Shown here one piece after another: positions 5,412-27,971 of a stretch of 46,716 bases of DNA. The stretch lies in assembly GCA_018580065.1 (NCBI GenBank), contig GCA_018580065.1_4845.1; one strand, written 5' to 3'. The DNA is from a phage. The notes under the pieces were generated by a model. It had not been told where the DNA came from, did no database searches, and saw only the letters and a list, made by a program, of their open reading frames with translations. Position numbers and translations under genes: made by a program. Each line of letters begins with the position of its first letter. Position 1 is the stretch's first letter.

Positions 5412-5455
5412 TAAATCTCCTGTTGTTTGATTAGCATGATTTTAGCATATTCCTG

Positions 5456-5484
5456 TTGACGTAGATTGATGGTGTGTTTATAGT
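5456..5484 (+). promoter_or_regulatory. sigma70-like promoter, TTGACG-17nt-TATAGT, with two copies of the GACGTAGA motif
   Basis: TTGACGTAGATT at 5456-5467, TATAGT 5479-5484, second motif copy GTGACGTAGAAA at 5487-5498. Confidence 0.6.
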
Positions 5485-5524
5485 TAGTGACGTAGAAACA
5501 ACAATAAATGTTAGAGGTGATGAA

Positions 5525-5980: not shown

Positions 5981-6790
5981 ATGAAAACACTAAGCAAAAT
6001 CTATTCAGACAAAGAAACACGCAACGGCATCGCTGTTAACAAAACCTATCTCGTGCCAGTGGAGCAAATCTATCTGGAGCCGGGATATAACATCCGTGAA
6101 GCAGATGAGCAGCATGTTGAATATTTTGCGCAGTGCTGGGAGTCCGGCCAGCCATTACCAGCATTAACAGTTATTCCAGACGAGAAGGGAATCCGCATTC
6201 TTGATGGTCAGCATCGCTATCTCGGCGCATTGCGTGCCATTGAGCGCGGAGCACCAATCGTTCGAATTGAGTGCAAGGATTTCACTGGCGACGAGGCGGA
6301 CAAAATCGCCTTCATGGTGTCATCAAGTCAGGGTAAGCAGCTTGACCCGTTTGAGCGCGCAAAGGCTTACACGCGACTGAAAGGCTTCGGCTGGACGAAT
6401 GAAGAAATCGCAAAAAAGGTAGGGCGCTCAGTATCTGACGTGCAAATGCATCTGTCTCTTGGTGATGTTCCGGCGGAAGTAAAAGCGCGAATCAGCGCCG
6501 GGCAAATCAGCTATGCAAATGCCGTAGCAGTAACTCGTGAGCATGGTGACGATGCGGTAAAGGTTATCGACGAGGCGGTCGAGGAAGCCAAAGCGCAAGG
6601 TAAGGATAAGGTCACTGCGAAGGTGCTGAAGTCGAAAAAGATTAAGCCAGTAGACCGTCTGATTGAGTTATTGAAGCCAGCAGACCACGTGATTCTTCCT
6701 GCTGGTCATGTGGTGGCAGAGGATGAGGAATTTATCCAGATTCCTGTTGCTGACATTCACGAGGTTATGGCAATTCTGGAGAAGATGTGA
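5981..6790 (+). CDS. ParB-like nuclease domain protein with C-terminal HTH
   Basis: ILDGQHRYLGALRA motif typical of ParB/Srx N-domain; RBS before ATG 5981. Confidence 0.65.
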   Translation: MKTLSKIYSDKETRNGIAVNKTYLVPVEQIYLEPGYNIREADEQHVEYFAQCWESGQPLPALTVIPDEKGIRILDGQHRYLGALRAIERGAPIVRIECKDFTGDEADKIAFMVSSSQGKQLDPFERAKAYTRLKGFGWTNEEIAKKVGRSVSDVQMHLSLGDVPAEVKARISAGQISYANAVAVTREHGDDAVKVIDEAVEEAKAQGKDKVTAKVLKSKKIKPVDRLIELLKPADHVILPAGHVVAEDEEFIQIPVADIHEVMAILEKM

Positions 6791-7281
6791 TGAACACAAC
6801 TAAAATAAATTGGGGTGATATTTTTCATTATGAAAATGGGGTGCTTAGGTGGAAGCACCAAAAAAGAAAAATGCTAAGTGGCTCTTTAGCTGGGACAATT
6901 GCAAATACAGGATATGTAATCATATGCGTTGATTACAAAAAATTCTTGGCTCACAGAATCATATGGGAGATGTTTAATGGACCAATCCCTGACGGGATGC
7001 AAATTGATCACATTAACCATATTCGTAATGATAACCGCATTGAAAACTTAAGGCTGGTAAGCCATATAGAGAACCATAGAAATCTTAGTAGGCAGAAAAA
7101 TAACAAATCAGGAAGAACTGGCGTTAGCTTTGACAGGAAGAGTGGGTTATGGAGGGCTTATGTATCAAAGATGCATATTGGTTTTTTTGCCAATAAAGAA
7201 GATGCAATATCCGCTAGAGAAAAAGCTGAAACTTCAACTGGGTATCACGAGAATCACGGAGTAAAAAGTGAACGTTTATGA
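6787..7281 (+). CDS. HNH homing endonuclease with AP2-like DNA-binding domain
   Basis: IDHINHIRNDNRIENLRLVSHIENHRN HNH motif; C-terminal GVSFDRKSGLWRAYV AP2-like segment. Confidence 0.8.
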   Translation: MMNTTKINWGDIFHYENGVLRWKHQKRKMLSGSLAGTIANTGYVIICVDYKKFLAHRIIWEMFNGPIPDGMQIDHINHIRNDNRIENLRLVSHIENHRNLSRQKNNKSGRTGVSFDRKSGLWRAYVSKMHIGFFANKEDAISAREKAETSTGYHENHGVKSERL

Positions 7282-12563: not shown

Positions 12564-13052
12564 TCATACTCTTGCTTCTTGCGTTTGGACTTCCCCATGA
12601 TGACCTCTTACATTGCGAAGAAGTGAATTAAACAGATTGCCGACGTTAACCTCCTGCTCACTCCATGAATAACGCCATATCTTCTTGTGGTGGTCATAGC
12701 TTCGCGTTACATCGCCGTTATGAAACATGATGCGAATGCGGCTTTTCACGATGCGGTAATCAATACCAGTGGCGGCGCTAATCTCTTTCACCTCTGCGCC
12801 AGCGTTATCAAGCATGTGGCACTTAATCGCATCATCAATACCTGCCGCATCATCAGATATAAAATATTTATACTGCCACTTCCCGCCACGAATCACTGAC
12901 TTCTCGCGGCGAATAAAGCCAAGCGCAAGCATCTCATGCAAACGATGCGTTGTGGTGCTTGAATGCTTTCCTCTGCAATGCTCCTCAATGTATGCACGCG
13001 TTGCGCCGGGATGCATCATAATCACGCGCATGATTTGCGATTTATAATCCAT
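12564..13052 (-). CDS. putative DNA-binding protein (winged-helix-like)
   Basis: ORF track 162 aa; basic helical N-terminal region. Confidence 0.4.
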   Translation of the reverse strand: MDYKSQIMRVIMMHPGATRAYIEEHCRGKHSSTTTHRLHEMLALGFIRREKSVIRGGKWQYKYFISDDAAGIDDAIKCHMLDNAGAEVKEISAATGIDYRIVKSRIRIMFHNGDVTRSYDHHKKIWRYSWSEQEVNVGNLFNSLLRNVRGHHGEVQTQEARV

Positions 13053-13739: not shown

Positions 13740-13767
13740 TTCCACATCACCTTTTACGTTGTGGTAC

Positions 13768-13814
13768 AATCTACGTCAATAAGTATTGACTATGTGACGT
13801 AGAAACGTCAAGAT
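13768..13814. promoter_or_regulatory. divergent promoter/operator region with inverted GACGTAGA motif pair
   Basis: AATCTACGTCAA (13768-13779) and TGACGTAGAAA (13795-13805) form a dyad; TTGACT -35 at 13786-13791. Confidence 0.45.
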
Positions 13815-16509: not shown

Positions 16510-16553
16510 CCTGCCTCCTGCTCAAATAATAACTAATTCTATCACAATGGCTA

Positions 16554-16584
16554 TTGACGTAGATTGAGCGGTGGTGCATAGTAT
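16554..16584 (+). promoter_or_regulatory. sigma70-like promoter with GACGTAGA dyad
   Basis: TTGACGTAGATT 16554-16565, -10 candidates CATAGT/TAGTAT 16577-16584, inverted copy ATCTACATCA 16583-16592. Confidence 0.5.
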
Positions 16585-16614
16585 CTACATCAAGTGATGA
16601 GTGAGGTGATGAAG

Positions 16615-16998: not shown

Positions 16999-17277
16999 AT
17001 GACAAAACGCGAATTACACCAATTATTTAACAAATGGCTTGATTCTGTTGGTTTTGGCGACATGAATGATAGAGAGAAGGACTTGCTTTGGTTTGGGTTT
17101 TCTGTTGGATATTGCCACGACAATAACAAGACCATGCTCGCAGCACTCCAGCAGCTTCTGGAAATCTACGACGACCATTCAGGAAAAGCCTGGACAACAT
17201 CAAGCAAGCGTCGTGCTCTGGATAATGCGCGCGATGCGGTTAATAAAGCGCTGGGGGAGCGCAATGAAACAATGTGA
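16999..17277 (+). CDS. hypothetical protein
   Basis: ORF track from GTG 16987; ATG at 16999. Confidence 0.45.
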   Translation: MTKRELHQLFNKWLDSVGFGDMNDREKDLLWFGFSVGYCHDNNKTMLAALQQLLEIYDDHSGKAWTTSSKRRALDNARDAVNKALGERNETM

Positions 17278-17749
17278 TCTTTTCCGTGTTCTTAGTTATA
17301 ACCCTGAATCTGGTGAATTCACGTGGATTAAATCAAGAAGACATGGGTTTAGCGGTCGAAAGGCTGGGTCGGTAAATGGGAAAGGGTACATACAGATCTG
17401 CATTGATGGAAAGCTTTATCTTGCGCACAGGCTTGCTCTTCTATACGTGACAGGAGAGATGCCAAAGGAGGTGGATCATATTAACAGGGTGAGAGATGAC
17501 AATAGATTATGCAACTTAAGGCCATGCACTTCATCTGAAAATAAGCACAACAAGGATATCACATCCAGAAACAAAACAGGGATGAAGGGCGTCAGCTGGT
17601 ATCCTGCCGGAAATTCATGGCGAGTAAGGATATGCGTAAATAAAACACAGATTCATCTGGGCTACTACGAAGACATTGAGCTGGCAGAGCTTGTGTCGCA
17701 AGAGGCGAGAATTAAATACGCAGGAGATTTTAATTATGAAGCTTATTGA
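17264..17749 (+). CDS. HNH homing endonuclease with AP2-like domain (second copy)
   Basis: VDHINRVRDDNRLCNLRPCTSSENKHN HNH motif; GVSWYPAGNSWRVRI AP2-like; paralogous to 6787..7281; ORF track begins upstream in-frame at 17066. Confidence 0.8.
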   Translation: MKQCDLFRVLSYNPESGEFTWIKSRRHGFSGRKAGSVNGKGYIQICIDGKLYLAHRLALLYVTGEMPKEVDHINRVRDDNRLCNLRPCTSSENKHNKDITSRNKTGMKGVSWYPAGNSWRVRICVNKTQIHLGYYEDIELAELVSQEARIKYAGDFNYEAY

Positions 17750-18504: not shown

Positions 18505-18533
18505 CAAGCCCTCACTTAGAGGGCTTTTTGTTA
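18505..18533. terminator. bidirectional intrinsic terminator
   Basis: AAGCCCTC-actta-GAGGGCTT with T-run. Confidence 0.7.
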
Positions 18534-19433
18534 TTGCTCTGGTTTTCCTCCGAGCTTTCTAATAATTTCTGCAGCAACGCACGGATCAACATTAAAAAAT
18601 TCAGTCGCCCCATCGAAACCTGACAACCCAGCATTTAAGTCCTTTAGCTTTCTATGCGCAGCGCCTTCCGCTTTCCTTGCTTTGTAATAGCTTTCGAATG
18701 AGAACTGACACAACAAAGATATAGAAAGACCTGATTTTTTAGTTAGTTGCTGAATCCTTAGAGGAACGTTATTTGATAACCCTATCTTTATCATTCCATT
18801 TGCTTCCAACAAATAAACCATAGTCTTTTTGAATGGGTTTCTTCCTGCGCATTTTGCACACCCGTGCCCCTTGGCGTGATGGCCAGCAAACTGGCGAAAA
18901 CTGCCATGAATAGGGCATATTATTTCAACCATGCTATTCATGCCACTAAAAACTACCTCATCATATGAATATTTCCCGCCATGGGCCTCTTTGCATCTTG
19001 CTATGAAGGATTCTGTATCCATGCCGCCCTTTCCACTGCAAACCCTGCACCCAATATTCCCTCTCAAGTGATCTCTTGCTATTTGCTGGAATTCACCATG
19101 TTTTTTGCACCTTATGGTTATCATTGACAGCATTCCAGAGTATTTGGTTGGTGAATAATCATAAATATCATGGTTTTTACTGGGAATCATATCCATAAAC
19201 TCATCATGACTGTACCCGTTATGCATTCCCCTGCCGGGCCTGCACTTTCTGCATCCGTTGCAACCGTTGAGGTGATCATTTGGCGTCTGTTTAAATAACA
19301 CATCATGCTTAATACATCTGATTATTACTGGCGATTTCCTTTTGATGTATTTAGTTTCTGAATAGTCAAATTTATCGCCGTGGATTAACTTAGCGCGTGA
19401 AATGAAATCTTCTGTGGTAGGTCTTTTTGCCAT
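18531..19433 (-). CDS. T5orf172-domain (GIY-YIG-related) protein with three N-terminal Cys-rich repeats; putative homing endonuclease
   Basis: C-terminal VYLLEANGMIKIGLSNN...GATEFFNV; three ~45-aa repeats each ending GCxxC; ATG 19433 (ORF track starts TTG 19517). Confidence 0.6.
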   Translation of the reverse strand: MAKRPTTEDFISRAKLIHGDKFDYSETKYIKRKSPVIIRCIKHDVLFKQTPNDHLNGCNGCRKCRPGRGMHNGYSHDEFMDMIPSKNHDIYDYSPTKYSGMLSMITIRCKKHGEFQQIARDHLRGNIGCRVCSGKGGMDTESFIARCKEAHGGKYSYDEVVFSGMNSMVEIICPIHGSFRQFAGHHAKGHGCAKCAGRNPFKKTMVYLLEANGMIKIGLSNNVPLRIQQLTKKSGLSISLLCQFSFESYYKARKAEGAAHRKLKDLNAGLSGFDGATEFFNVDPCVAAEIIRKLGGKPEQ

Positions 19434-19528
19434 TATTAACCCCGTAGCAGGTTCGTAGATTGAGGATTGCAGCAGGGTGTCTACGTTCACCTTTTCGTCT
19501 GGCCGGACTAGCTGCAATTGAGATTATA

Positions 19529-20485
19529 TCACTTTGCCTTGTGAGCTGAAAGCCACTTATCTCTCGCTGATATCATCCTGTCAAGAGAAGATTCAAGCAT
19601 GATCACATTACCATTTTCATCTAATAGGCATGGCGTTTGACCACAATGGCACCGAAATCTATTTCCGTCCTTGCTGTAAAACTCCTCCACCTGTTCTGGC
19701 GAGTACGCCTTAGAGTGTCTGATGGCGTGAGTTTGTCTGGTTGTTGGTAATAGCGCCGACACCCAAAATAGGGCACTATTTAGCCCCAAAATAATCTTTG
19801 ATTCCTGAACTTCGTCAGACTGCGACTTGCGTAAAATGCCCGTAAGCTCGGTTTGGGCAATGTTTTTTGCTCGCGATTCACTTACACCAACGCGCTTAAT
19901 GATGTCTGATTCAATATCTCTCGGATTAGAACCAACAGCGATAGCATTCATGATCACCTGAGACAAATCATTACGTGCCGCGTCTCCAATTCCAACCCAA
20001 TCGCTGTAAGTGGAGGCATTGGCAATAGACAGGCGCTGCAAATATGGCTCAGAGTAAATAATGTCTGCAATTGAACGGCGCTCAGCATAGAGTGGAGACA
20101 TGGCTGCCAGTTGCTGTTGCGCCTCAACCGTACCAGCTGAATAGGCGTCAGAGACATAAATTGACATCCAGAACTGACCAGCATCCATTGGCTGAGTATC
20201 ATCAAGCAGTATTTCATCAATTAGCTGTTGCAGCGCCTCATTAAATTGAGCTGCCCTAGCGGCTGAAAAATCATACCTGTAACCATAGGCATCAATGGAG
20301 TTAATTGCGGCAACTGGAATTGACCTGAATAAGTCTATGACTGACGATTTAAGGCGCTTGTATCGCGCCTCAATCTGTTTGTTTGCCTTGCTTAGTCTCC
20401 TGTTAGCGCCAACAGGGTCTGTTTTGCTGGTTGGTATCTTCGGGCCAACCAGTCTGGCGCTAACCTTAAAGATTTTGATTTTCAT
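19529..20485 (-). CDS. head morphogenesis protein (SPP1 gp7 / Mu F-like, by position)
   Basis: Immediately downstream of portal gene; ATG 20485 overlaps portal stop (ORF track from 20557). Confidence 0.55.
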
Positions 20486-21869
20486 CGTCAGGATTACCCT
20501 CTGTGACGATCTGAATTTCTTCAATCGGCTCCATGCCAACCATGCCGCGAGCCTCATCGACAGTTAACAGCGCAGACTGACCAGCATCAAAGAATGACTT
20601 GTTCGCAGTGGCCAGTTTGGCTAGCAACTCCGCTTTATCCAGTTCCGATGGTGCCAGCAGGTCATCCCACTTAACTTTGTAGCCATTTTCTGGTGCTTTA
20701 TCGACAATGCCGAACTGAATCATGCGCTCAACAAACATTGAAATGACATAATCAACCCATGTTTCGCGGCGTTGTTTGGCGGTCATCGCCTCCTGCATCT
20801 TGTCTTCATCGCTTGCAAGGCGCCCTGTCTGCTGCCCGAAAATGACGGTGAACGGAAGCGCCATAGATGCAGCGAACTGGTTGGCAGCAACTTCCCATGT
20901 TGGTTTCGGATCGGCTGGCGCCACAGCGAGAACCTTTGCGTCAGCGCCCATTGTGAACATGGCGGCGTCGATGCCTGAGTTCAGCGCCTCAATGTTCTCA
21001 TTCATGATGTCGGTGAGTTCTTCGATGTCGACACCCATCGACTGAGCGAGACTTGCTGGTGTTACATTATCCTCCGTATAGTTAACAGCCAGTTGGCGGC
21101 TTGCATTCTTCAGGAATCCTTCTGCGGAGCTACCGGAAACCTTAGCCATGTCGATAAGGCTGTTGTAGCCAGCACGCAACATCGGGACGCCACTGAACAT
21201 GCTGCCGTCAAAGCTCCCCTCCGCCAGAATAATGATGCGGTCAGGGTGAATCTGCACGGAACGCTCAGGCTTGCCGTCGCTGTCGAAGTCTTCCACGGCG
21301 CTTTCCTGATATTCGTACATCTCAGGCATTCCGTAGTCTTCGCTGGTTTCGTCGTTATTCCACGCACTGACTTTGAGCTGCTCCTCCCATACCGGAATAA
21401 AGCGGACGATGGATTTATCTTTAATGCGGCGTGTTTTTGTGATGTCTACCGGTTCACTCCATTGCTTACCATCGCGGATTTGCAGGATGACGGCGGAATA
21501 GCGGTTGATGGCGTTGCGCTTGTCGGCCTCCTTGATGAACGGATAGGCACGCTTCATCATGCCGTTGATGGACAGTTCCCACGACGTAGAGTTCTTGTCA
21601 TCCTCGCCATCTTCGACCACCTCTGGGTACTTCTGCCAGCATTTATTAATAATGCGGTTAATGCCAGCTGCGGCGGCAGGATGTCGCTCGTAGGCGTAGC
21701 GGAACATCTCAGCGGTGATTTCCTGCGGGTAGCCGCATTCCGTCCAGAGTCTGTCGTGCTTCTGGTCAAGATTCTTCCCACCAGCACAAAGCCGTTGCTG
21801 CTGAATAGCCCGGTTATTGTTCGCCACGCGGTCGCGTATGTAGGCGTTTAAAGCATCAATTTTGGACAT
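20466..21869 (-). CDS. portal protein
   Basis: 467 aa, acidic C-terminus, followed by head morphogenesis gene. Confidence 0.75.
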
Positions 21870-21878
21870 ATGTCACCA

Positions 21879-21906
21879 ATAAAAAAACCCATCACGTTGG
21901 ATGGGA
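21879..21906 (-). terminator. terminator-like hairpin directly upstream of portal start
   Basis: Minus-strand CCCATC-caacgt-GATGGG followed by T7 run. Confidence 0.5.
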
Positions 21907-21919
21907 TTATAGCATGGTA

Positions 21920-22126
21920 TCAATAGTCGAAGGCTCGCCTGTGCATCGTGGCGTTACTGTGATGGAATACAACATTTTCCATCCTATCCCCTAGCACCAA
22001 CCCTCTGCATTTTGCGTAAATCTGATACTGCTTATTATTGAATTTATCATGACTATCAAACCAGATGCCCTCAAACCTTTTTCTAAGTTCAACAGCCATC
22101 TCGTGAAGATGTTTTCTGTCCATCAC
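21920..22126 (-). CDS. hypothetical protein
   Basis: ORF track 68 aa. Confidence 0.4.
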   Translation of the reverse strand: MMDRKHLHEMAVELRKRFEGIWFDSHDKFNNKQYQIYAKCRGLVLGDRMENVVFHHSNATMHRRAFDY

Positions 22127-22311
22127 TCCACCTTTTCCAGTTTATCAATGATAACGTCGTAGCCCTTTATTTCGTACTTTGCAACCAATTCGCAACCCAA
22201 AAACCAATCGAACGCTTCATTGGCGTTAGATGTCGTGGCTGTCGCGCAAACCTTGGTAACAACTTCACCACCATCAAGCACTTCAGCATGAATAAAATAA
22301 ACGCTCATCAC
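22123..22311 (-). CDS. hypothetical protein
   Basis: ORF track 62 aa. Confidence 0.4.
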   Translation of the reverse strand: MMSVYFIHAEVLDGGEVVTKVCATATTSNANEAFDWFLGCELVAKYEIKGYDVIIDKLEKVE

Positions 22312-22487
22312 TCAATCTCCTCACCATCAACCCAGCGTTGCAGGACTTCGATTAGCTGCATGGCTTGGTGTTTGTCAATAATAATAGCGTTATGACCCTG
22401 AGTAATCATTGGATTAAACTTGAAATCAACAGCTATTGTGCACATTGGCGTTTTTGTTTCGTCTTCAATAACAATCATCACATCACC

Positions 22488-22895
22488 TCAACAAAGCTCA
22501 CCATCAGTTATCATCAATAACTTCTGCCATTTAGCTACCGGCTTGCACAACTCAGACTTCAACCTGCTTAACGAGCCTGTAATATCAGACCATTCGGCAA
22601 ACGGAACGAATCGCACAAACCGGTAGTCAGCTCCAGCCCAGTGCCAGCCAAGCGTGTAGTCGATGTATGTGCCGTCTGACTGCATGTTTATGTAATGTGC
22701 AGTCACAGACTTATCATCAATCACCACAACCTCAACCACTGCGCACGAACTTCCGTCACGCGCCCTGTTCACTGCATTCAGATGACAGGCGTGATTGTAC
22801 AGGCCAGTACCATCAATGAATGATATATCAATCTTTTTGGTGTATTTCTTATCCGCAGCGTCGCGGATTATTTTCTTTAATTTATCCCTGAACAT
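22488..22895 (-). CDS. hypothetical protein
   Basis: ORF track from TTG 22946; ATG 22895 with GGTGG RBS. Confidence 0.45.
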   Translation of the reverse strand: MFRDKLKKIIRDAADKKYTKKIDISFIDGTGLYNHACHLNAVNRARDGSSCAVVEVVVIDDKSVTAHYINMQSDGTYIDYTLGWHWAGADYRFVRFVPFAEWSDITGSLSRLKSELCKPVAKWQKLLMITDGELC

Positions 22896-23085
22896 GATTA
22901 ATCCACCATGCGGCAATGGCTGAGAAAATCCACAATCCGATAACAAGTCTGAAAACCTGCCAGTTTAGAATGTCATCAATGCTTGGTGCTTCCCATCTAA
23001 TCAACCAGATAAGCGGAAAAGCAATCGCTAGTGCAATGGTGTACTTAATACCAATAAACAGAAAATCTCTCACAAAATCTCTCAT
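22882..23085 (-). CDS. small membrane protein
   Basis: ORF track 67 aa, two hydrophobic helices. Confidence 0.45.
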   Translation of the reverse strand: MRDFVRDFLFIGIKYTIALAIAFPLIWLIRWEAPSIDDILNWQVFRLVIGLWIFSAIAAWWINHVQG

Positions 23086-23100
23086 ATCACCCTCTCAAAA

Positions 23101-23298
23101 TCAGTTAACCATATAGTAAATATCATCACGAGCAAACTCGTCAGCATCCTCCTGGCATTCAATTGCAACATCCTCATCGTAATATGATGCTAACTGCCGC
23201 GCCGTAGCTCTGCGTTTTTTCTTGCTATTGCGCATATCTCTGAACACGCACAGTTCTTTATCATAAGCCCGGACCATTCTTTTCATTATGCTTTTCAT
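23101..23298 (-). CDS. hypothetical protein
   Basis: ORF track 65 aa. Confidence 0.4.
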   Translation of the reverse strand: MKSIMKRMVRAYDKELCVFRDMRNSKKKRRATARQLASYYDEDVAIECQEDADEFARDDIYYMVN

Positions 23299-23302
23299 GT
23301 TT

Positions 23303-23509
23303 TCACCCTCTCAAAAAATCATTCTTGCAGCAGATACCTTTATATCCGCGCTTCTCTTGCAGGTTAACGAAAACATCATCAATAACACGCAGCAGAAAAT
23401 CCTCGTCAATATCATACCGACGACAAATCACATCATCAGGAACACCAGCTCGTGCCAGGGAATAAACCTGCTCTTTTTCCTCCTGTGTGAATCCTGCATA
23501 GCTGCGCAT
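23303..23509 (-). CDS. hypothetical protein, first gene of minus-strand early operon
   Basis: ATG 23509 downstream of minus-strand promoter (ORF track starts upstream at 23569). Confidence 0.45.
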   Translation of the reverse strand: MRSYAGFTQEEKEQVYSLARAGVPDDVICRRYDIDEDFLLRVIDDVFVNLQEKRGYKGICCKNDFLRG

Positions 23510-23530
23510 AGTGATATCTCCGATAAACCT

Positions 23531-23640
23531 GATGTAGATTATACTATGCGCTCGGTGTAGATTGGTCAAGTGTGGTGATGCAGATTTATCAACAACAATA
23601 ATAAATGTTGACGTAGATATGTTGGTGACGTAGAATCATC
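23531..23640. promoter_or_regulatory. divergent promoter region with five copies of the GAYGTAGAWW motif
   Basis: Minus promoter TTGACC-17-TAGTAT (plus coords 23541-23569); plus promoter TTGACG-17-TAGAAT (23608-23636); motif copies at 23531, 23554, 23577, 23610, 23627. Confidence 0.6.
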
Positions 23641-23670
23641 TTATCGAAAAGAGATTAAGGAACAAGAGAA

Positions 23671-23826
23671 ATGTTTGAGACTAAAAAAGAATGCGAAGCG
23701 TACATTGCCGAAACTTATGGTGCTGACTACGTTAAATTTGGCATCGTTACCGCCCAGAAAGTTGGCTCAACAGTCGCCAAGATGCTTGGCATCAAAGAAG
23801 GTTACTACCCATCAAATGCCTACTAA
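23671..23826 (+). CDS. hypothetical small protein (51 aa)
   Basis: ATG 23671 with AAGGAACAAGAG RBS, first ORF after promoter; different frame from ORF-track entry 23675..24028. Confidence 0.4.
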   Translation: MFETKKECEAYIAETYGADYVKFGIVTAQKVGSTVAKMLGIKEGYYPSNAY

Positions 23827-23830
23827 TTAC

Positions 23831-24028
23831 ATGCCAAGATGCCTTCGTGAAATACCGAAGTCGAAAGTGAAACCAAGTAATCAAGCGATAAGGGAGGCAA
23901 AGATTGAGGCTTTCAATATTGCCATTTCGATAATAAAAGACAGATGCAGAGATGAAAAGTCTGAGCGCGTTAAATCGAACATGTATGCAGCTGTGAGTGA
24001 TATATCCAGATTGAGAGATGAGCTTTAA
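23831..24028 (+). CDS. hypothetical protein
   Basis: In-frame ATG within ORF-track entry 23675..24028; the upstream part of that ORF is low-complexity. Confidence 0.4.
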   Translation: MPRCLREIPKSKVKPSNQAIREAKIEAFNIAISIIKDRCRDEKSERVKSNMYAAVSDISRLRDEL

Positions 24029-24055
24029 GCCCTCGATTGAGGGCTTTATTTTTAT
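24026..24055. terminator. bidirectional intrinsic terminator
   Basis: AAGCCCTC-gatt-GAGGGCTT with T-run; between convergent genes. Confidence 0.7.
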
Positions 24056-25515
24056 CGCCTGCGCCGGATTAGCATCCCGCTACCGCGCTGTACGATGTGG
24101 TCATTGAGTGCGTAGCGAACCGCATCCCAATAGTGGTTGTATGCATCAACAATATCAGTCAGCACATTCCCAGTCAGCTTATCAACCTTATAGCTGTACA
24201 TTGCAGCCTCATTCTGCATTTCCTTGCATCGCTCGTGGATGACAATGCTGTCACATCCGCGCAGCCATGTTACGCCATCTTCAACGCTACCCGGCCATTT
24301 TGTGCATGGATGAATATCAAATCCAGAGCGCTTAATATGGCTAATGGTTTCGGGTCGAGCACAGTCGGCATACCATCTTGCGCGTTTAGCCATCGGGAAT
24401 GATTGCTCCATCGCGGCTGGTGTATCGGTAATCTCAAGGCCAACCTTGCCATACTCGCGATTAATATAAATGTTGCGTCGTCCACCTGGTAATTCTTCAA
24501 TGTAAACCTCAACCATTGCGGTAGGATCGGTGGAAAACCCGAAGTCCATCCCGAAATATGGACCATGCCATTCAGGCTTAACCTCAAAGTTATCAATGCG
24601 CCATTTTCCGCCGAATACCTGCTCGTCGCTGCGTTTGTTGAATGCTCCCATCCAAATCCAGCGATAACGGTCGTAATCAGTTCGCTTCATTTGCTCCATA
24701 GCGGACGGCAGGGGAGTGTCCCAGAACCACGGGTTGTCTGAATAGTTACATTCGATAATCAGAATTTCATCGTTTTCGAATATGCCATCAACCATCTGCG
24801 AGTGATAAGGCGCAATCCAGTTTTTCCACGTCGGGTCTGTTTCCTTGTTTGGGTTGAATGAGCACCACAACTCGGAATTGGCGGCACGGATGGTAGGCAC
24901 AAGAATATCCCAGCTTGTCTGGCTGACGTTCTCTGCTTCCTCTACCCAACCAACGGTAATGCCAGCGAAGCCCTTAACGGTTGTCTGATTGCGATACAGC
25001 CCCTTGAAGCGAAACTTCGCTTTGGTCTTCTTGTGTGTTATCTCGTTGTTGATAACGCGAAACTCTGCCGATTCACCCTTCCGGGCTATCTCATCAACAA
25101 GTTCCTGATAGCTTGAATCCTCAATGGATTGCTGAATCTCACGAAAGCAAGCAAAGCGGTCAGGTCGAAACCTTGCGCGCTCGGTAAGGATAGTGATAAT
25201 TGTTCTCGTCTTCCCTGACCCACGGCCACCATAGACGAACTTGAATCGTTTGGGGTAAAGCAGTCGCTCCAGTTTTGCGGGAATCAGGTGGTCGGCATGA
25301 GTGGTTGCATTGGTCACGTCATCAACGCCAGTAGCGGTCATCCTTAACCGCTTGATGACGTTTTTCTGCATGTCGCAGATACCAAAGATGGCAGACTCTG
25401 CAACATCTGTCATTGCATCATCAATCTGCGCTTCCAGCTTTTCTATTGCCAGTGCAGAGAGGCGTTTACGAGCCATTGGTTGGCTCCTGAAGAATGTCGG
25501 CCACCTCCTCATCAC
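24052..25515 (-). CDS. terminase large subunit
   Basis: Walker A VYGGRGSGKT, ATPase then nuclease-type C-terminal half; true start may be MARKRL at 25476. Confidence 0.85.
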   Translation of the reverse strand: MMRRWPTFFRSQPMARKRLSALAIEKLEAQIDDAMTDVAESAIFGICDMQKNVIKRLRMTATGVDDVTNATTHADHLIPAKLERLLYPKRFKFVYGGRGSGKTRTIITILTERARFRPDRFACFREIQQSIEDSSYQELVDEIARKGESAEFRVINNEITHKKTKAKFRFKGLYRNQTTVKGFAGITVGWVEEAENVSQTSWDILVPTIRAANSELWCSFNPNKETDPTWKNWIAPYHSQMVDGIFENDEILIIECNYSDNPWFWDTPLPSAMEQMKRTDYDRYRWIWMGAFNKRSDEQVFGGKWRIDNFEVKPEWHGPYFGMDFGFSTDPTAMVEVYIEELPGGRRNIYINREYGKVGLEITDTPAAMEQSFPMAKRARWYADCARPETISHIKRSGFDIHPCTKWPGSVEDGVTWLRGCDSIVIHERCKEMQNEAAMYSYKVDKLTGNVLTDIVDAYNHYWDAVRYALNDHIVQRGSGMLIRRRR

Positions 25516-25601
25516 TCATTGACTCATCAAACACAACGTCTCGCTCATCTCCGCTGCGCAGAAGAATCACCTCATCACATCTTTGTTTATAATAAACTGA
25601 A

Positions 25602-26021
25602 TCATCCATTCTGCTGCTCCAGTAGTTTCTCCAGCCGCTCAAGTCTCGCGGCGAGTTCAGTAACTTCGGCAATATCCAGCCCTGTCCTGATAACCTCGGC
25701 AAATGTCTTACCAATGTCCACAGGTATAACACCAGCGGCTATACCTCGAATGACGGCGTCAATCTTCTGCACCGGAGTTCCGTCATCAGGGAAGTCCACC
25801 TCAAACACTGGGGCAACTGGTTTAGGTAGCGGACTGAATCGAACGATAAGCTCCTTCATCATTGCGGTGTCACGCTCAATCATTGCCATCTCAATGATGG
25901 TGTCATAGAGCTTTTCTTCGCTAAATCCCTTTCTCTCAAGAGCTTCAACAAGCAGCTTACGCTTATCTTTCCCGCGTTTGTTTTGTGGTTGATTTTCTTT
26001 ACTGAATAGCTTTTTAGCCAT
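25602..26021 (-). CDS. terminase small subunit (putative)
   Basis: 139 aa basic N-terminus, immediately upstream of terminase large subunit. Confidence 0.5.
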   Translation of the reverse strand: MAKKLFSKENQPQNKRGKDKRKLLVEALERKGFSEEKLYDTIIEMAMIERDTAMMKELIVRFSPLPKPVAPVFEVDFPDDGTPVQKIDAVIRGIAAGVIPVDIGKTFAEVIRTGLDIAEVTELAARLERLEKLLEQQNG

Positions 26022-26094
26022 AGATAAAACCTATCAATATTCCGCTATTTTTCCGTTATTCGATATTGTAACAGATTCTACACCATAGCGTTAA

Positions 26095-26126
26095 TGGCAA
26101 AAAAAGAACCCGCACGGGGCGGGCCA
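26095..26126 (-). terminator. intrinsic terminator ending the minus-strand early operon
   Basis: Minus-strand CCCGC-loop-GCGGG followed by TTCTTTTTTT. Confidence 0.6.
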
Positions 26127-26169
26127 AAGGTTGGGTGATGATATGAGGAAAGCAATGGTGGTTATGCGT

Positions 26170-26343
26170 TTATTGTACACCATGATTATCACGCTTGCCA
26201 GCATAGCACCACGCGTTTTCTGTTCTGGTCTGCACATGAACGATTTCAAGCGCATCAGGAAATGTTTTGGCGACCTTAGCGATAAAATCGTCCAGCTCGT
26301 GCTGTTTTGCGAGTTGCCAGACTTTCTGTTTAGTGGTTTGCAT
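26170..26343 (-). CDS. hypothetical protein
   Basis: Internal ATG of ORF-track entry 26170..26409. Confidence 0.35.
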   Translation of the reverse strand: MQTTKQKVWQLAKQHELDDFIAKVAKTFPDALEIVHVQTRTENAWCYAGKRDNHGVQ

Positions 26344-26527
26344 TAGCAAAAGCCCTCGTTGAGCACATACACTTAATGTCATGTACCCCAGTATCAGGAA
26401 CAACCTCAATGTAATTTCCGAGCTGAACCATCATGTAGTGACACGTCATGCCGCCGTCCCAGTAGCGTTTCCACATGAATTCCATTGCGGAGTTGATGTC
26501 ATTAAACATAATGCACAACTCCTGCAA
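26330..26527 (-). CDS. hypothetical protein
   Basis: ORF track 65 aa. Confidence 0.4.
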   Translation of the reverse strand: MQELCIMFNDINSAMEFMWKRYWDGGMTCHYMMVQLGNYIEVVPDTGVHDIKCMCSTRAFANANH

Positions 26528-27942: not shown

Positions 27943-27971
27943 AATCTACATCAGTTGTGATTCTACGTCAA
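27943..27971 (-). promoter_or_regulatory. sigma70-like early promoter, TTGACG-17nt-TAGATT
   Basis: Minus strand TTGACGTAGAAT...GATGTAGATT; both elements are copies of the recurring motif. Confidence 0.6.

Follow-up and report, generated by a model that had tools for sequence, protein, structure and literature searches.

We analyzed the interval between the terminase and portal genes in a stretch of phage DNA of 46,716 nucleotides (NCBI GenBank assembly GCA_018580065.1, contig GCA_018580065.1_4845.1), the whole of which is called the window below. The window is that of a Skatevirus-like siphovirus, and the closest record, Escherichia phage swi2, is 89% identical and has the same layout. Swiduovirus, Skatevirus, Deseoctovirus, Segzyvirus and Macdonaldcampvirus form one cluster in the BASEL study. 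The minus strand of the window carries, in this order, a candidate small terminase subunit (TerS) of 139 amino acids, the terminase large subunit (TerL), the portal protein, a MuF-like head protein and a T5orf172 endonuclease. TerL (24052-25515, minus strand) matched Pfam Terminase_3 (3.3e-37) and Terminase_3C (1e-11), and the portal protein (20466-21869, minus strand) matched Phage_portal_3 (1.4e-20); these significant profile matches covered most of the length of both proteins. The distance from the TerL stop (24052) to the portal ATG (21869) was 2,182 bp, in agreement with the separation of about 2.2 kb reported in a first-pass annotation. The interval consists of one two-gene unit on the plus strand and one minus-strand operon of seven tightly coupled small genes, the first of which encodes a 68-amino-acid helix-turn-helix (HTH)-like protein. 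The G+C content of this block was 0.40-0.45 compared with 0.48-0.53 in TerL and portal. In the region, terminator-like sites were enriched (16 found, 8.5 expected) and promoter-like sites were at the level of chance (17 found, 16.6 expected). An Rfam scan of positions 21500-26500 gave one sub-threshold chance match and nothing else.

We compared the interval in 35 loci, namely that of the window and 34 IMG/VR loci carrying the 68-amino-acid protein. The loci share a fixed framework, which is made up of the HTH-like gene with its promoter P(-) and of a composite element immediately upstream of portal. Two slots lie within this framework. Slot A, from the TerL stop to just upstream of P(-), takes self-contained promoter-genes-terminator cassettes on the opposite strand. 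Measured from the TerL stop to the HTH start, it ranged from 75 to 1411 bp, and it was commonly about 75 bp long when empty, about 335 bp with one gene and about 542 bp with two; larger states were common as well. Slot B, from the HTH stop to the composite element, takes zero to six small packed genes; measured as far as the portal start, it ranged from 96 to 1599 bp and was 96-98 bp long when empty. There were 34 different architectures among the 35 loci, and gene order was partly conserved. Without filtering, the cargo open reading frames (ORFs) formed at least 40 clusters, some of which represent spurious overlapping ORFs. Thus, the separation of terminase and portal that the first-pass annotation had singled out proved to be a framework common to the lineage and not a peculiarity of this genome, and the content of small genes within it did vary. 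The interval is very probably a lineage-wide variable accessory locus.

The 3′ ends of TerL and the 5′ ends of portal were bimodal (about 71-75% versus 88-92% identical) and occurred in mosaic combinations. Because the HTH-gene segment was uniformly 88-95% identical while these flanking alleles were bimodal and mosaic, this segment marks a module boundary. In four loci, a non-homologous ORF of 435 amino acids occupied the TerL position and adjoined the same HTH gene; its identity as TerL is taken from its position. In these loci (L014, L016, L024 and L039), the ORF lies directly upstream of an HTH gene that is 97-100% identical, and in L014 (2700-4443) it follows an ORF of 153 amino acids. The four loci look like swaps of a whole terminase module. 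In Salmonella phage ST46 (L006, 3406-5925), TerL is annotated with 2,520 bp (840 amino acids) compared with the usual length of about 1,425 bp, which could reflect the insertion of an intein or of an endonuclease, or else a fusion of ORFs.

The plus-strand unit of the window is a 466-bp cassette (23591-24056) with a promoter, two ORFs and a terminator, as delimited by junction alignment with relatives. It is flanked by TTTATC direct repeats (23585-23590 and 24051-24056). The alignment showed that the cassette is absent from phages C1 and ST46, in which ...GCAGATTTATC (also given as ...GATTTATC) is joined directly to GCCTGCG... of the TerL stop region, and that the window has 466 bp extra at this point. 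The promoter of the cassette, P(+) (TTGACG-17-TAGAAT; 23608-23636, plus strand), agreed with the sigma-70 consensus at 10 of 12 positions, the top score of the scan, and was conserved in swi2, SeSz-2 and Klebsiella phage 6991. It is followed by orf51 (23671-23826, plus strand; 51 amino acids, phrog_8009) and orf65(+) (23831-24028, plus strand; 65 amino acids, phrog_5305). A homologue search with orf51 returned close relatives only; tblastn against phages was more informative and detected RB49ORF205c and homologues in about 59 Krischvirus (RB49-like T4-type) genomes and in Sashavirus. In Sashavirus Solent, the homologue of orf65(+) (gene 003) adjoins that of orf51 (gene 004), as in the window.

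The cassette ends in a hairpin terminator (24027-24046, plus strand; -18.1 kcal/mol, z -3.5), which is followed by UAUUUUUAUC. The same sequence also folds on the minus strand, but UUAAAG follows it there instead of a U-run, and the scan listed the plus strand only. Since the U-run is confined to the plus strand, the hairpin is not truly bidirectional; it would terminate transcripts of the plus unit and, for those of TerL, would be a weak stop at best. The bidirectional terminator that the first-pass annotation had placed after TerL was therefore rejected. The convergent two-gene plus unit of that annotation was borne out, with its promoter, two ORFs and terminator hairpin, and proved to be an insertion without a counterpart in C1 and ST46.

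In lambdoid phages, the units called morons by Hendrix and colleagues consist of a promoter, a gene and a terminator and are inserted between genes that are adjacent in related phages. The cassette resembles them in that it has its own consensus-like promoter and its own terminator, has a G+C content below that of its neighbours and is precisely absent from C1 and ST46. Slot A was 75-76 bp long in 7 of the 35 loci, and the cassette is thus extra DNA between elements that are adjacent in relatives. At the sequence level, P(+) lies upstream of its genes and a factor-independent terminator lies downstream, and the unit, which is a discrete insertion, would be a textbook moron. Unlike the morons of prophages, it resides in a virulent siphovirus and thus has no role in lysogenic conversion. 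Further, it is convergent to the terminase genes, and its site behaves as a slot that can be filled repeatedly with alternative cassettes, not as the place of a single insertion. Other cargo occupies the cassette site in seszw, Vi II-E1, LPSTLL and AB4P2, and similarity to the window is lost inside or near P(+) and returns exactly at the terminator hairpin. The breakpoints of replacement in slot A between these relatives therefore lie in regulatory motifs.

Divergently from P(+), promoter P(-) (TTGACC-17-TAGTAT; 23541-23569, minus strand), with 9 of 12 consensus positions, precedes the operon led by the HTH-like gene. This gene (207 bp; 23303-23509, minus strand) belongs to phrog_13301, a family of unknown function. 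A 288-nt segment comprising P(-) and the HTH gene was 88-95% identical in the 34 relatives from IMG/VR. The encoded protein was 93-100% identical across these loci, and the gene was 90-94% identical at the nucleotide level in nine phage records. It lay between TerL and portal in every relative examined, and all of the relatives retrieved had the gene, P(-) and the element upstream of portal. A 16-nt inverted repeat (23504-23519 and 23536-23551) spans the -10 element of P(-) and the HTH start codon. An AlphaFold2 model of the protein (predicted local distance difference test score, 83) contained helices at residues 9-20, 25-32 and 36-53, and the best PDB matches of the model were HTH DNA-binding domains (NarL/GerE, CENP-B, IstA and resolvase), none of which was significant. 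PDB sequence searches with the protein gave no match. The model suggests an HTH-like protein of a DNA-binding type, and the pattern of conservation suggests that its gene behaves as a conserved core gene and not as cargo.

The seven minus-strand ORFs are joined via junctions of shared ribosome-binding site and stop or via TGATG stop-start overlaps, and because of this packing the genes in slot B must be co-transcribed with the HTH gene. Six of the seven, as well as both plus-strand ORFs, belong to PHROG families of unknown function. The first-pass annotation had counted six genes in this unit; the seventh ORF has homologues in five relatives. The first gene of slot B, orf65(-) (23101-23298, minus strand; 65 amino acids), matches the C-terminal half only of phrog_8758 and is rare cargo, found in 2 of the 35 loci. 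Exact 14-nt repeats, TTTTGAGAGGGTGA, lie on either side of it, at 23303-23316 and 23087-23100 (two copies versus 0.01 expected). The seventh ORF mentioned above (22882-23085, minus strand; 67 amino acids) has two hydrophobic segments and was judged from them to be a putative small membrane protein; no family match was found in the Pfam, NCBIfam, PADLOC or PHROG scans. Note that the Pfam, NCBIfam and PADLOC scans covered the nine small proteins and the TerS candidate. The last three genes of slot B are orf57 (22308-22478, minus strand; phrog_13627), which was found in 21 of the 35 loci, orf62 (22123-22308, minus strand; phrog_26739), found in 28 loci and often duplicated, and orf68b (21920-22123, minus strand; phrog_17303), found in 15 loci. 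The starts of orf62 and orf68b each overlap the upstream stop in the junction GAGTGATG.

Between the putative membrane protein gene and orf57 lies orf136 (22488-22895, minus strand; 135 amino acids, phrog_6596), whose family comprises 238 representative clusters at 50% identity and occurs in N4-like and other virulent phages. In a marine phage contig, a member of the family is part of a four-gene insert on the opposite strand within structural genes. Cys38, Asn41, His68 and Gly84 were invariant in the family and Asp80 was the consensus residue, a pattern that suggests a thiol enzyme. A Pfam scan of 57 diverse relatives found no family, and PDB searches with orf136 alone and with profiles of 17 and 57 sequences gave chance matches only (Kaiso, CARDS toxin and polybromo). 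The structure model of orf136 was of low confidence and too poor for use. In the prediction for the family, a helix begins at the Cys, and beta-strands bear the His and the Asp.

The minus-strand unit ends at the composite element (21881-21914, minus strand), in which a hairpin and a T-run follow an extended -10 promoter and which is conserved in all relatives. The extended -10 promoter, TGCTATAAT (21914-21906), is a perfect TGnTATAAT and lies directly upstream of the hairpin (21905-21888), which is followed by seven U residues (-12.3 kcal/mol, z -2.5). The first-pass annotation had assigned to the minus-strand unit a promoter and a terminator of its own. Both were located, the promoter with a score that by itself is at the level of chance but within the segment conserved in 34 relatives; the conserved extended -10 promoter at 21906-21914 had been overlooked. 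Conservation among relatives begins about 3 nt upstream of the extended -10 promoter and continues into portal. The stem of the hairpin is shorter in swi2 and remains able to pair. The architecture is the same in Klebsiella phage 6991, where TGATATAAT precedes a hairpin that differs in sequence and is stronger, and a T-run comes next. Further, the extended -10 pattern was enriched (8 versus 3.9 expected) and was also found after the terminator upstream of the TerS candidate and before the T5orf172 gene. From the geometry, we infer that transcription starting about 7 nt past the -10 would begin inside the 5′ arm of the hairpin. Because of this position, transcripts begun at the extended -10 promoter would escape termination, and those arriving from upstream would stop. 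The element would, in this way, end the cargo operon and restart transcription for portal.

This arrangement bears on the possibility that the HTH protein is the real functional element of the locus, as an activator or anti-terminator of the portal-head operon, and that the variable genes are passengers in a tolerant spot. The presence of the gene in every relative, the protein identity of 93-100% in the IMG/VR loci and its retention in all of the genome-reduced seszw mutants listed (see below) agree with such a role. The gene also lies just upstream of portal, and the intervening terminator makes control by read-through conceivable. However, beyond about 3 nt upstream of the extended -10 promoter the sequence is no longer conserved, which leaves no conserved upstream activator site, and a perfect TGnTATAAT should need no activator. 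The protein also showed no similarity to Q, Ogr, Mu C or other known late regulators. Activation of the portal promoter by the HTH protein was rejected as the main explanation on the basis of the position at which conservation ends, and we regard the wider proposal as unlikely. Note that it is compatible with the explanation of the cargo that we favour below.

The cargo of relatives includes genes with recognizable functions. In some of them (e.g., L016, 3603-4847, and L024), slot A encodes a DpdA-like transglycosylase (phrog_887, 8.5e-76) together with a transporter of the Vut_1/YhhQ type, and in others it encodes a PAPS reductase. Slot A of phage 6991 holds a Dam methylase and a polynucleotide kinase, according to the annotation of the record itself. 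The pairing of the DpdA-like and YhhQ/Vut_1 genes implies a predicted 7-deazaguanine DNA modification in a subset of Skatevirus-like phages. Slot B of relatives encodes HNH-AP2 endonucleases, an HslV-like protein, a HigA-like HTH protein, and membrane and zinc-ribbon proteins.

The endonucleases raise the question of whether the mosaicism is a footprint of homing, in which free-standing HNH and T5orf172 enzymes drive co-conversion and the small ORFs are functionless remnants, either decayed or hitch-hiking. Genes of the HNH or HNH-AP2 type adjoin portal in slot B of seszw, of Klebsiella phage 6991 and of three IMG/VR loci. In the window, a T5orf172 gene follows the MuF gene, and HNH genes are present at other places. 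Further, the TerL and portal alleles are mosaic. However, there is no endonuclease in the block of the window itself, and the cargo ORFs are intact and translationally coupled. The protein families of the cargo are conserved across distant phages, which argues for selection on the proteins. We therefore consider a homing footprint very unlikely.

Evidence on the dispensability of the small genes was available from Skatevirus seszw, which was subjected to CRISPR-based genome reduction (PMC9825161). Among 70 seszw-type records (at least 99% identical), about 44 lacked the HNH gene of slot B (gene 65), and at least one also lacked gene 64. These two genes are thus dispensable, as they were deleted in viable genome-reduced mutants (PMC9825161). 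The HTH gene (63) and the plus-strand gene (62) were kept in every seszw record listed, down to 36 kb, which bears indirectly, through the mutant genomes on record, on whether they are removable. In phage STGO-35-1, mass spectrometry of virions identified 18 proteins, whose genome order, in the accessible part of the report, begins at CDS10, the portal protein (PMC8954984). Within that part of the source, the proteins of the interval (CDS2-9) were apparently not detected in the virion (PMC8954984).

The small genes might instead be late morphogenesis or packaging factors, such as scaffolding helpers, head completion proteins or terminase cofactors, that are co-expressed by read-through from the terminase to the portal genes. 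They are located within the packaging and head module. Further, on the minus strand no U-run follows the hairpin downstream of TerL, and a terminator is altogether missing at this point in C1 and ST46, so that TerS-TerL transcripts can read into the HTH operon. However, the content of the interval differs in 34 of the 35 loci, slot B can be empty (96-98 bp), and genes 64 and 65 of seszw can be deleted. Moreover, the virion proteome of STGO-35-1, as far as the source is accessible, includes no protein of the interval, and homologues of the cargo occur in phages with unrelated virion architectures (T4-like and N4-like phages). We judge late structural or packaging functions to be very improbable indeed. 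The suggestion of the first-pass annotation that the small genes are accessory rather than structural was thus supported by the variable content, by the seszw deletions and, within the same limit of the source, by the STGO-35-1 virion; from the latter two, the interval genes of relatives did not appear as late structural components.

P(+) belongs to a family of promoters in this genome. The strict pattern TTGACR-N17-TAKWWT, which P(+) fits, occurred four times in the genome compared with 0.11 expected and in none of 100 shuffles. Promoters of the family carry TGAYGTAGAW at both hexamers (-35 and -10). Exact copies of TGAYGYAGAW were clustered in intergenic regions (139, 5457/5488, 13769/13795, 16555/16583, 23530-23626 and 27944/27961), and matches with at most one mismatch numbered 52 genome-wide versus 26 expected. 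Five copies in the same orientation form an array (23530-23635, plus strand; at 23530, 23553, 23576, 23609 and 23626) that spans both divergent promoters. This array is a candidate operator array, and its five copies and the 16-nt inverted repeat are candidate operators. In Klebsiella phage 6991, which is about 70% identical overall, the same TTGACGTAGATT...GTAGATT promoter was found at the equivalent place. Near-identical sigma-70-type sites of the family lie at 121-149, 1858-1886, 5453-5500, 13740-13805, 16550-16595, 23530-23636 and 27943-27971. Several are followed by ...TCATCGAAA, and some are paired divergently with a TGATATAAT extended -10 element, at 101-109 and 1843-1851. A gene for a MarR-family transcription regulator (12564-13052, minus strand; phrog_1687, 1e-56) lies just downstream of one copy of the promoter motif, and its product may be a rival candidate for the protein that binds TGAYGTAGAW.

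A remnant of an immunity or lysis-lysogeny switch like cI/Cro would likewise show two promoters placed back to back, a small HTH-like gene next to them and motifs repeated across both. However, the plus-strand partner is an optional insertion that is absent in many relatives. No integrase- or repressor-like protein turned up among about 28 proteins of the window that were scanned, although no dedicated search was made, and relatives are treated as lytic phages (PMC8954984, PMC9825161). A remnant switch is therefore extremely improbable.

The hyperplastic regions of T4-type phages, with their PeSL (promoter/stem-loop) cassettes, offer another comparison (Arbiol et al., 2010, PMC2839356; a follow-up appeared in 2014, PMC4122927). 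In both cases, many near-identical copies of a strong sigma-70-like promoter are distributed across the genome, promoters and stem-loop terminators enclose ORFs that are small, non-essential and of unknown function, and breakpoints between close relatives fall inside regulatory motifs. Further, orf51 is homologous to RB49ORF205c, which is flanked by early promoters with a stem-loop in the spacer, the PeSL form, and lies inside a block of small ORFs (PMC2839356). In contrast to the RB49ORF205c promoter, the spacers of P(+) and P(-) hold no hairpin. The repeated element of the window differs from PeSLs in being TGAYGTAGAW at both hexamers, and the sole promoter-hairpin composite has its hairpin after the -10 element. 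Unlike the T4-type regions, the locus lies in a 47-kb siphovirus.

Upstream of the interval, the gene proposed as TerS (25602-26021, minus strand; 139 amino acids) belongs to phrog_9747, of unknown function, and had no Pfam, NCBIfam or PDB match; the TerS label of the first-pass annotation thus depends on its position upstream of TerL. The gene is preceded by a terminator (26125-26107) and then by an extended -10 promoter, TGTTACAAT (26065-26073). TerL itself likely starts at the ATG at 25476, as annotated in swi2, and would then have 474 amino acids. An ORF of 47 amino acids (25466-25609, minus strand) bridges the TerS candidate and TerL, overlapping the former at its end and the latter at its start; the records of swi2, SeSz-2 and LPSTLL annotate it as a gene of 147 bp. 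The free-standing T5orf172/MUG113/DUF723 endonuclease gene (18531-19517, minus strand) follows the MuF head gene and has its own extended -10 promoter, TGATATAAT, at 19523-19531. Additional HNH endonuclease genes lie at 6787-7281 and 17066-17749. The window measures 46.7 kb, compared with 45-48 kb for the genomes of relatives. Because of this size and the presence of tail, replication, packaging, head and lysis genes, the window is probably a complete phage genome.

As a whole, we explain the interval as a hyperplastic accessory-gene locus common to Skatevirus-like virulent siphoviruses, which we consider reasonably probable. In the proposed mechanism, host RNA polymerase would fire P(+) and P(-) early. 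Binding of the HTH protein, or possibly of the MarR-like protein, to the TGAYGYAGAW copies, the inverted repeat or both would later shut both promoters. The hairpin at 21888-21905 would halt the cargo transcript, and portal transcripts, which the extended -10 promoter would start inside the hairpin, would escape termination. The cargo would turn over by recombination at the promoter motif, the terminator, the TTTATC repeats and the TTTTGAGAGGGTGA repeats, a step suggested by the positions of the junctions.

Several points weigh against this explanation. Early expression is read from promoter sequence only and is to that extent fairly probable, and the 9 of 12 positions matched by P(-) are, taken alone, at the level of chance. 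The HTH call comes from a model built on seven sequences, with a best fold match of E ~0.5. The TGAYGYAGAW motif may itself belong to the promoter, or the MarR-like protein may bind it instead of the HTH protein. The conservation of the HTH segment could be explained by purifying selection rather than by recombination, and the retention of seszw genes 62 and 63 could mean that these genes are important or simply that they were not hit. No cargo protein of the window matched a family of known function in Pfam, NCBIfam, PADLOC, PHROG annotation or PDB. A role of the cargo in counter-defence or host takeover is the one that we favour but is tentative, as it is suggested by what relatives hold in the same slots, that is, by guilt by association.

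In acr-aca loci, anti-defence operons are controlled by an HTH autorepressor, and phages also carry counter-defence genes in so-called accessory regions. The locus resembles acr-aca loci in having a strong promoter, a string of small, fast-evolving and exchanged genes beside a conserved small HTH-like gene, and repeats over the promoter. As in the counter-defence regions, relatives hold DNA-modification genes here (DpdA-like with YhhQ-like, Dam or PAPS reductase). In contrast to acr-aca operons, the HTH gene is the first and not the last of the operon. No homologue of Acr, Aca, another anti-defence protein or a named regulator was found in Pfam, NCBIfam, PHROG annotation, PADLOC or PDB; no dedicated anti-defence library was searched. 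A stronger version of the favoured explanation makes the locus a dedicated regulated island, in which the HTH protein would be an Aca-like master repressor acting on the array, the conserved segments would be recombination linkers and thus a siphovirus analogue of the T4-type PeSLs, and the cargo, including the orf136 family and the orf51/orf65 pair, would be new inhibitor or effector families. We regard this version as doubtful.

The modular theory of phage evolution holds that conserved linker sequences lie between exchangeable modules. The HTH-promoter segment resembles such a linker in its uniform conservation between flanks that consist of two freely recombining allele classes, and even the ORF at the TerL position is replaced by a non-homologous one. 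It differs from a linker in being a protein-coding gene with its promoter, on which purifying selection could act.

The locus combines the classic features of morons with PeSL-like shuffling at regulatory motifs and is, in this respect, an ordinary kind of phage accessory-gene hotspot. Nothing here overturns the current view of phage genome organization, and the result will not surprise phage genomicists. It does provide a precise map of a swappable slot in phages of Salmonella, E. coli and Klebsiella that are under development for biocontrol and therapy. With the conserved flanks (the TerL stop, the HTH gene and the element upstream of portal), cargo is easily harvested from relatives, and the slot is a natural landing pad for engineering. 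Further, the promoter-hairpin element upstream of portal represents a compact natural design of an insulator. Because the pool already includes recognizable DNA-modification genes, the cargo families of unknown function are reasonable candidates for new counter-defence or host-takeover proteins.

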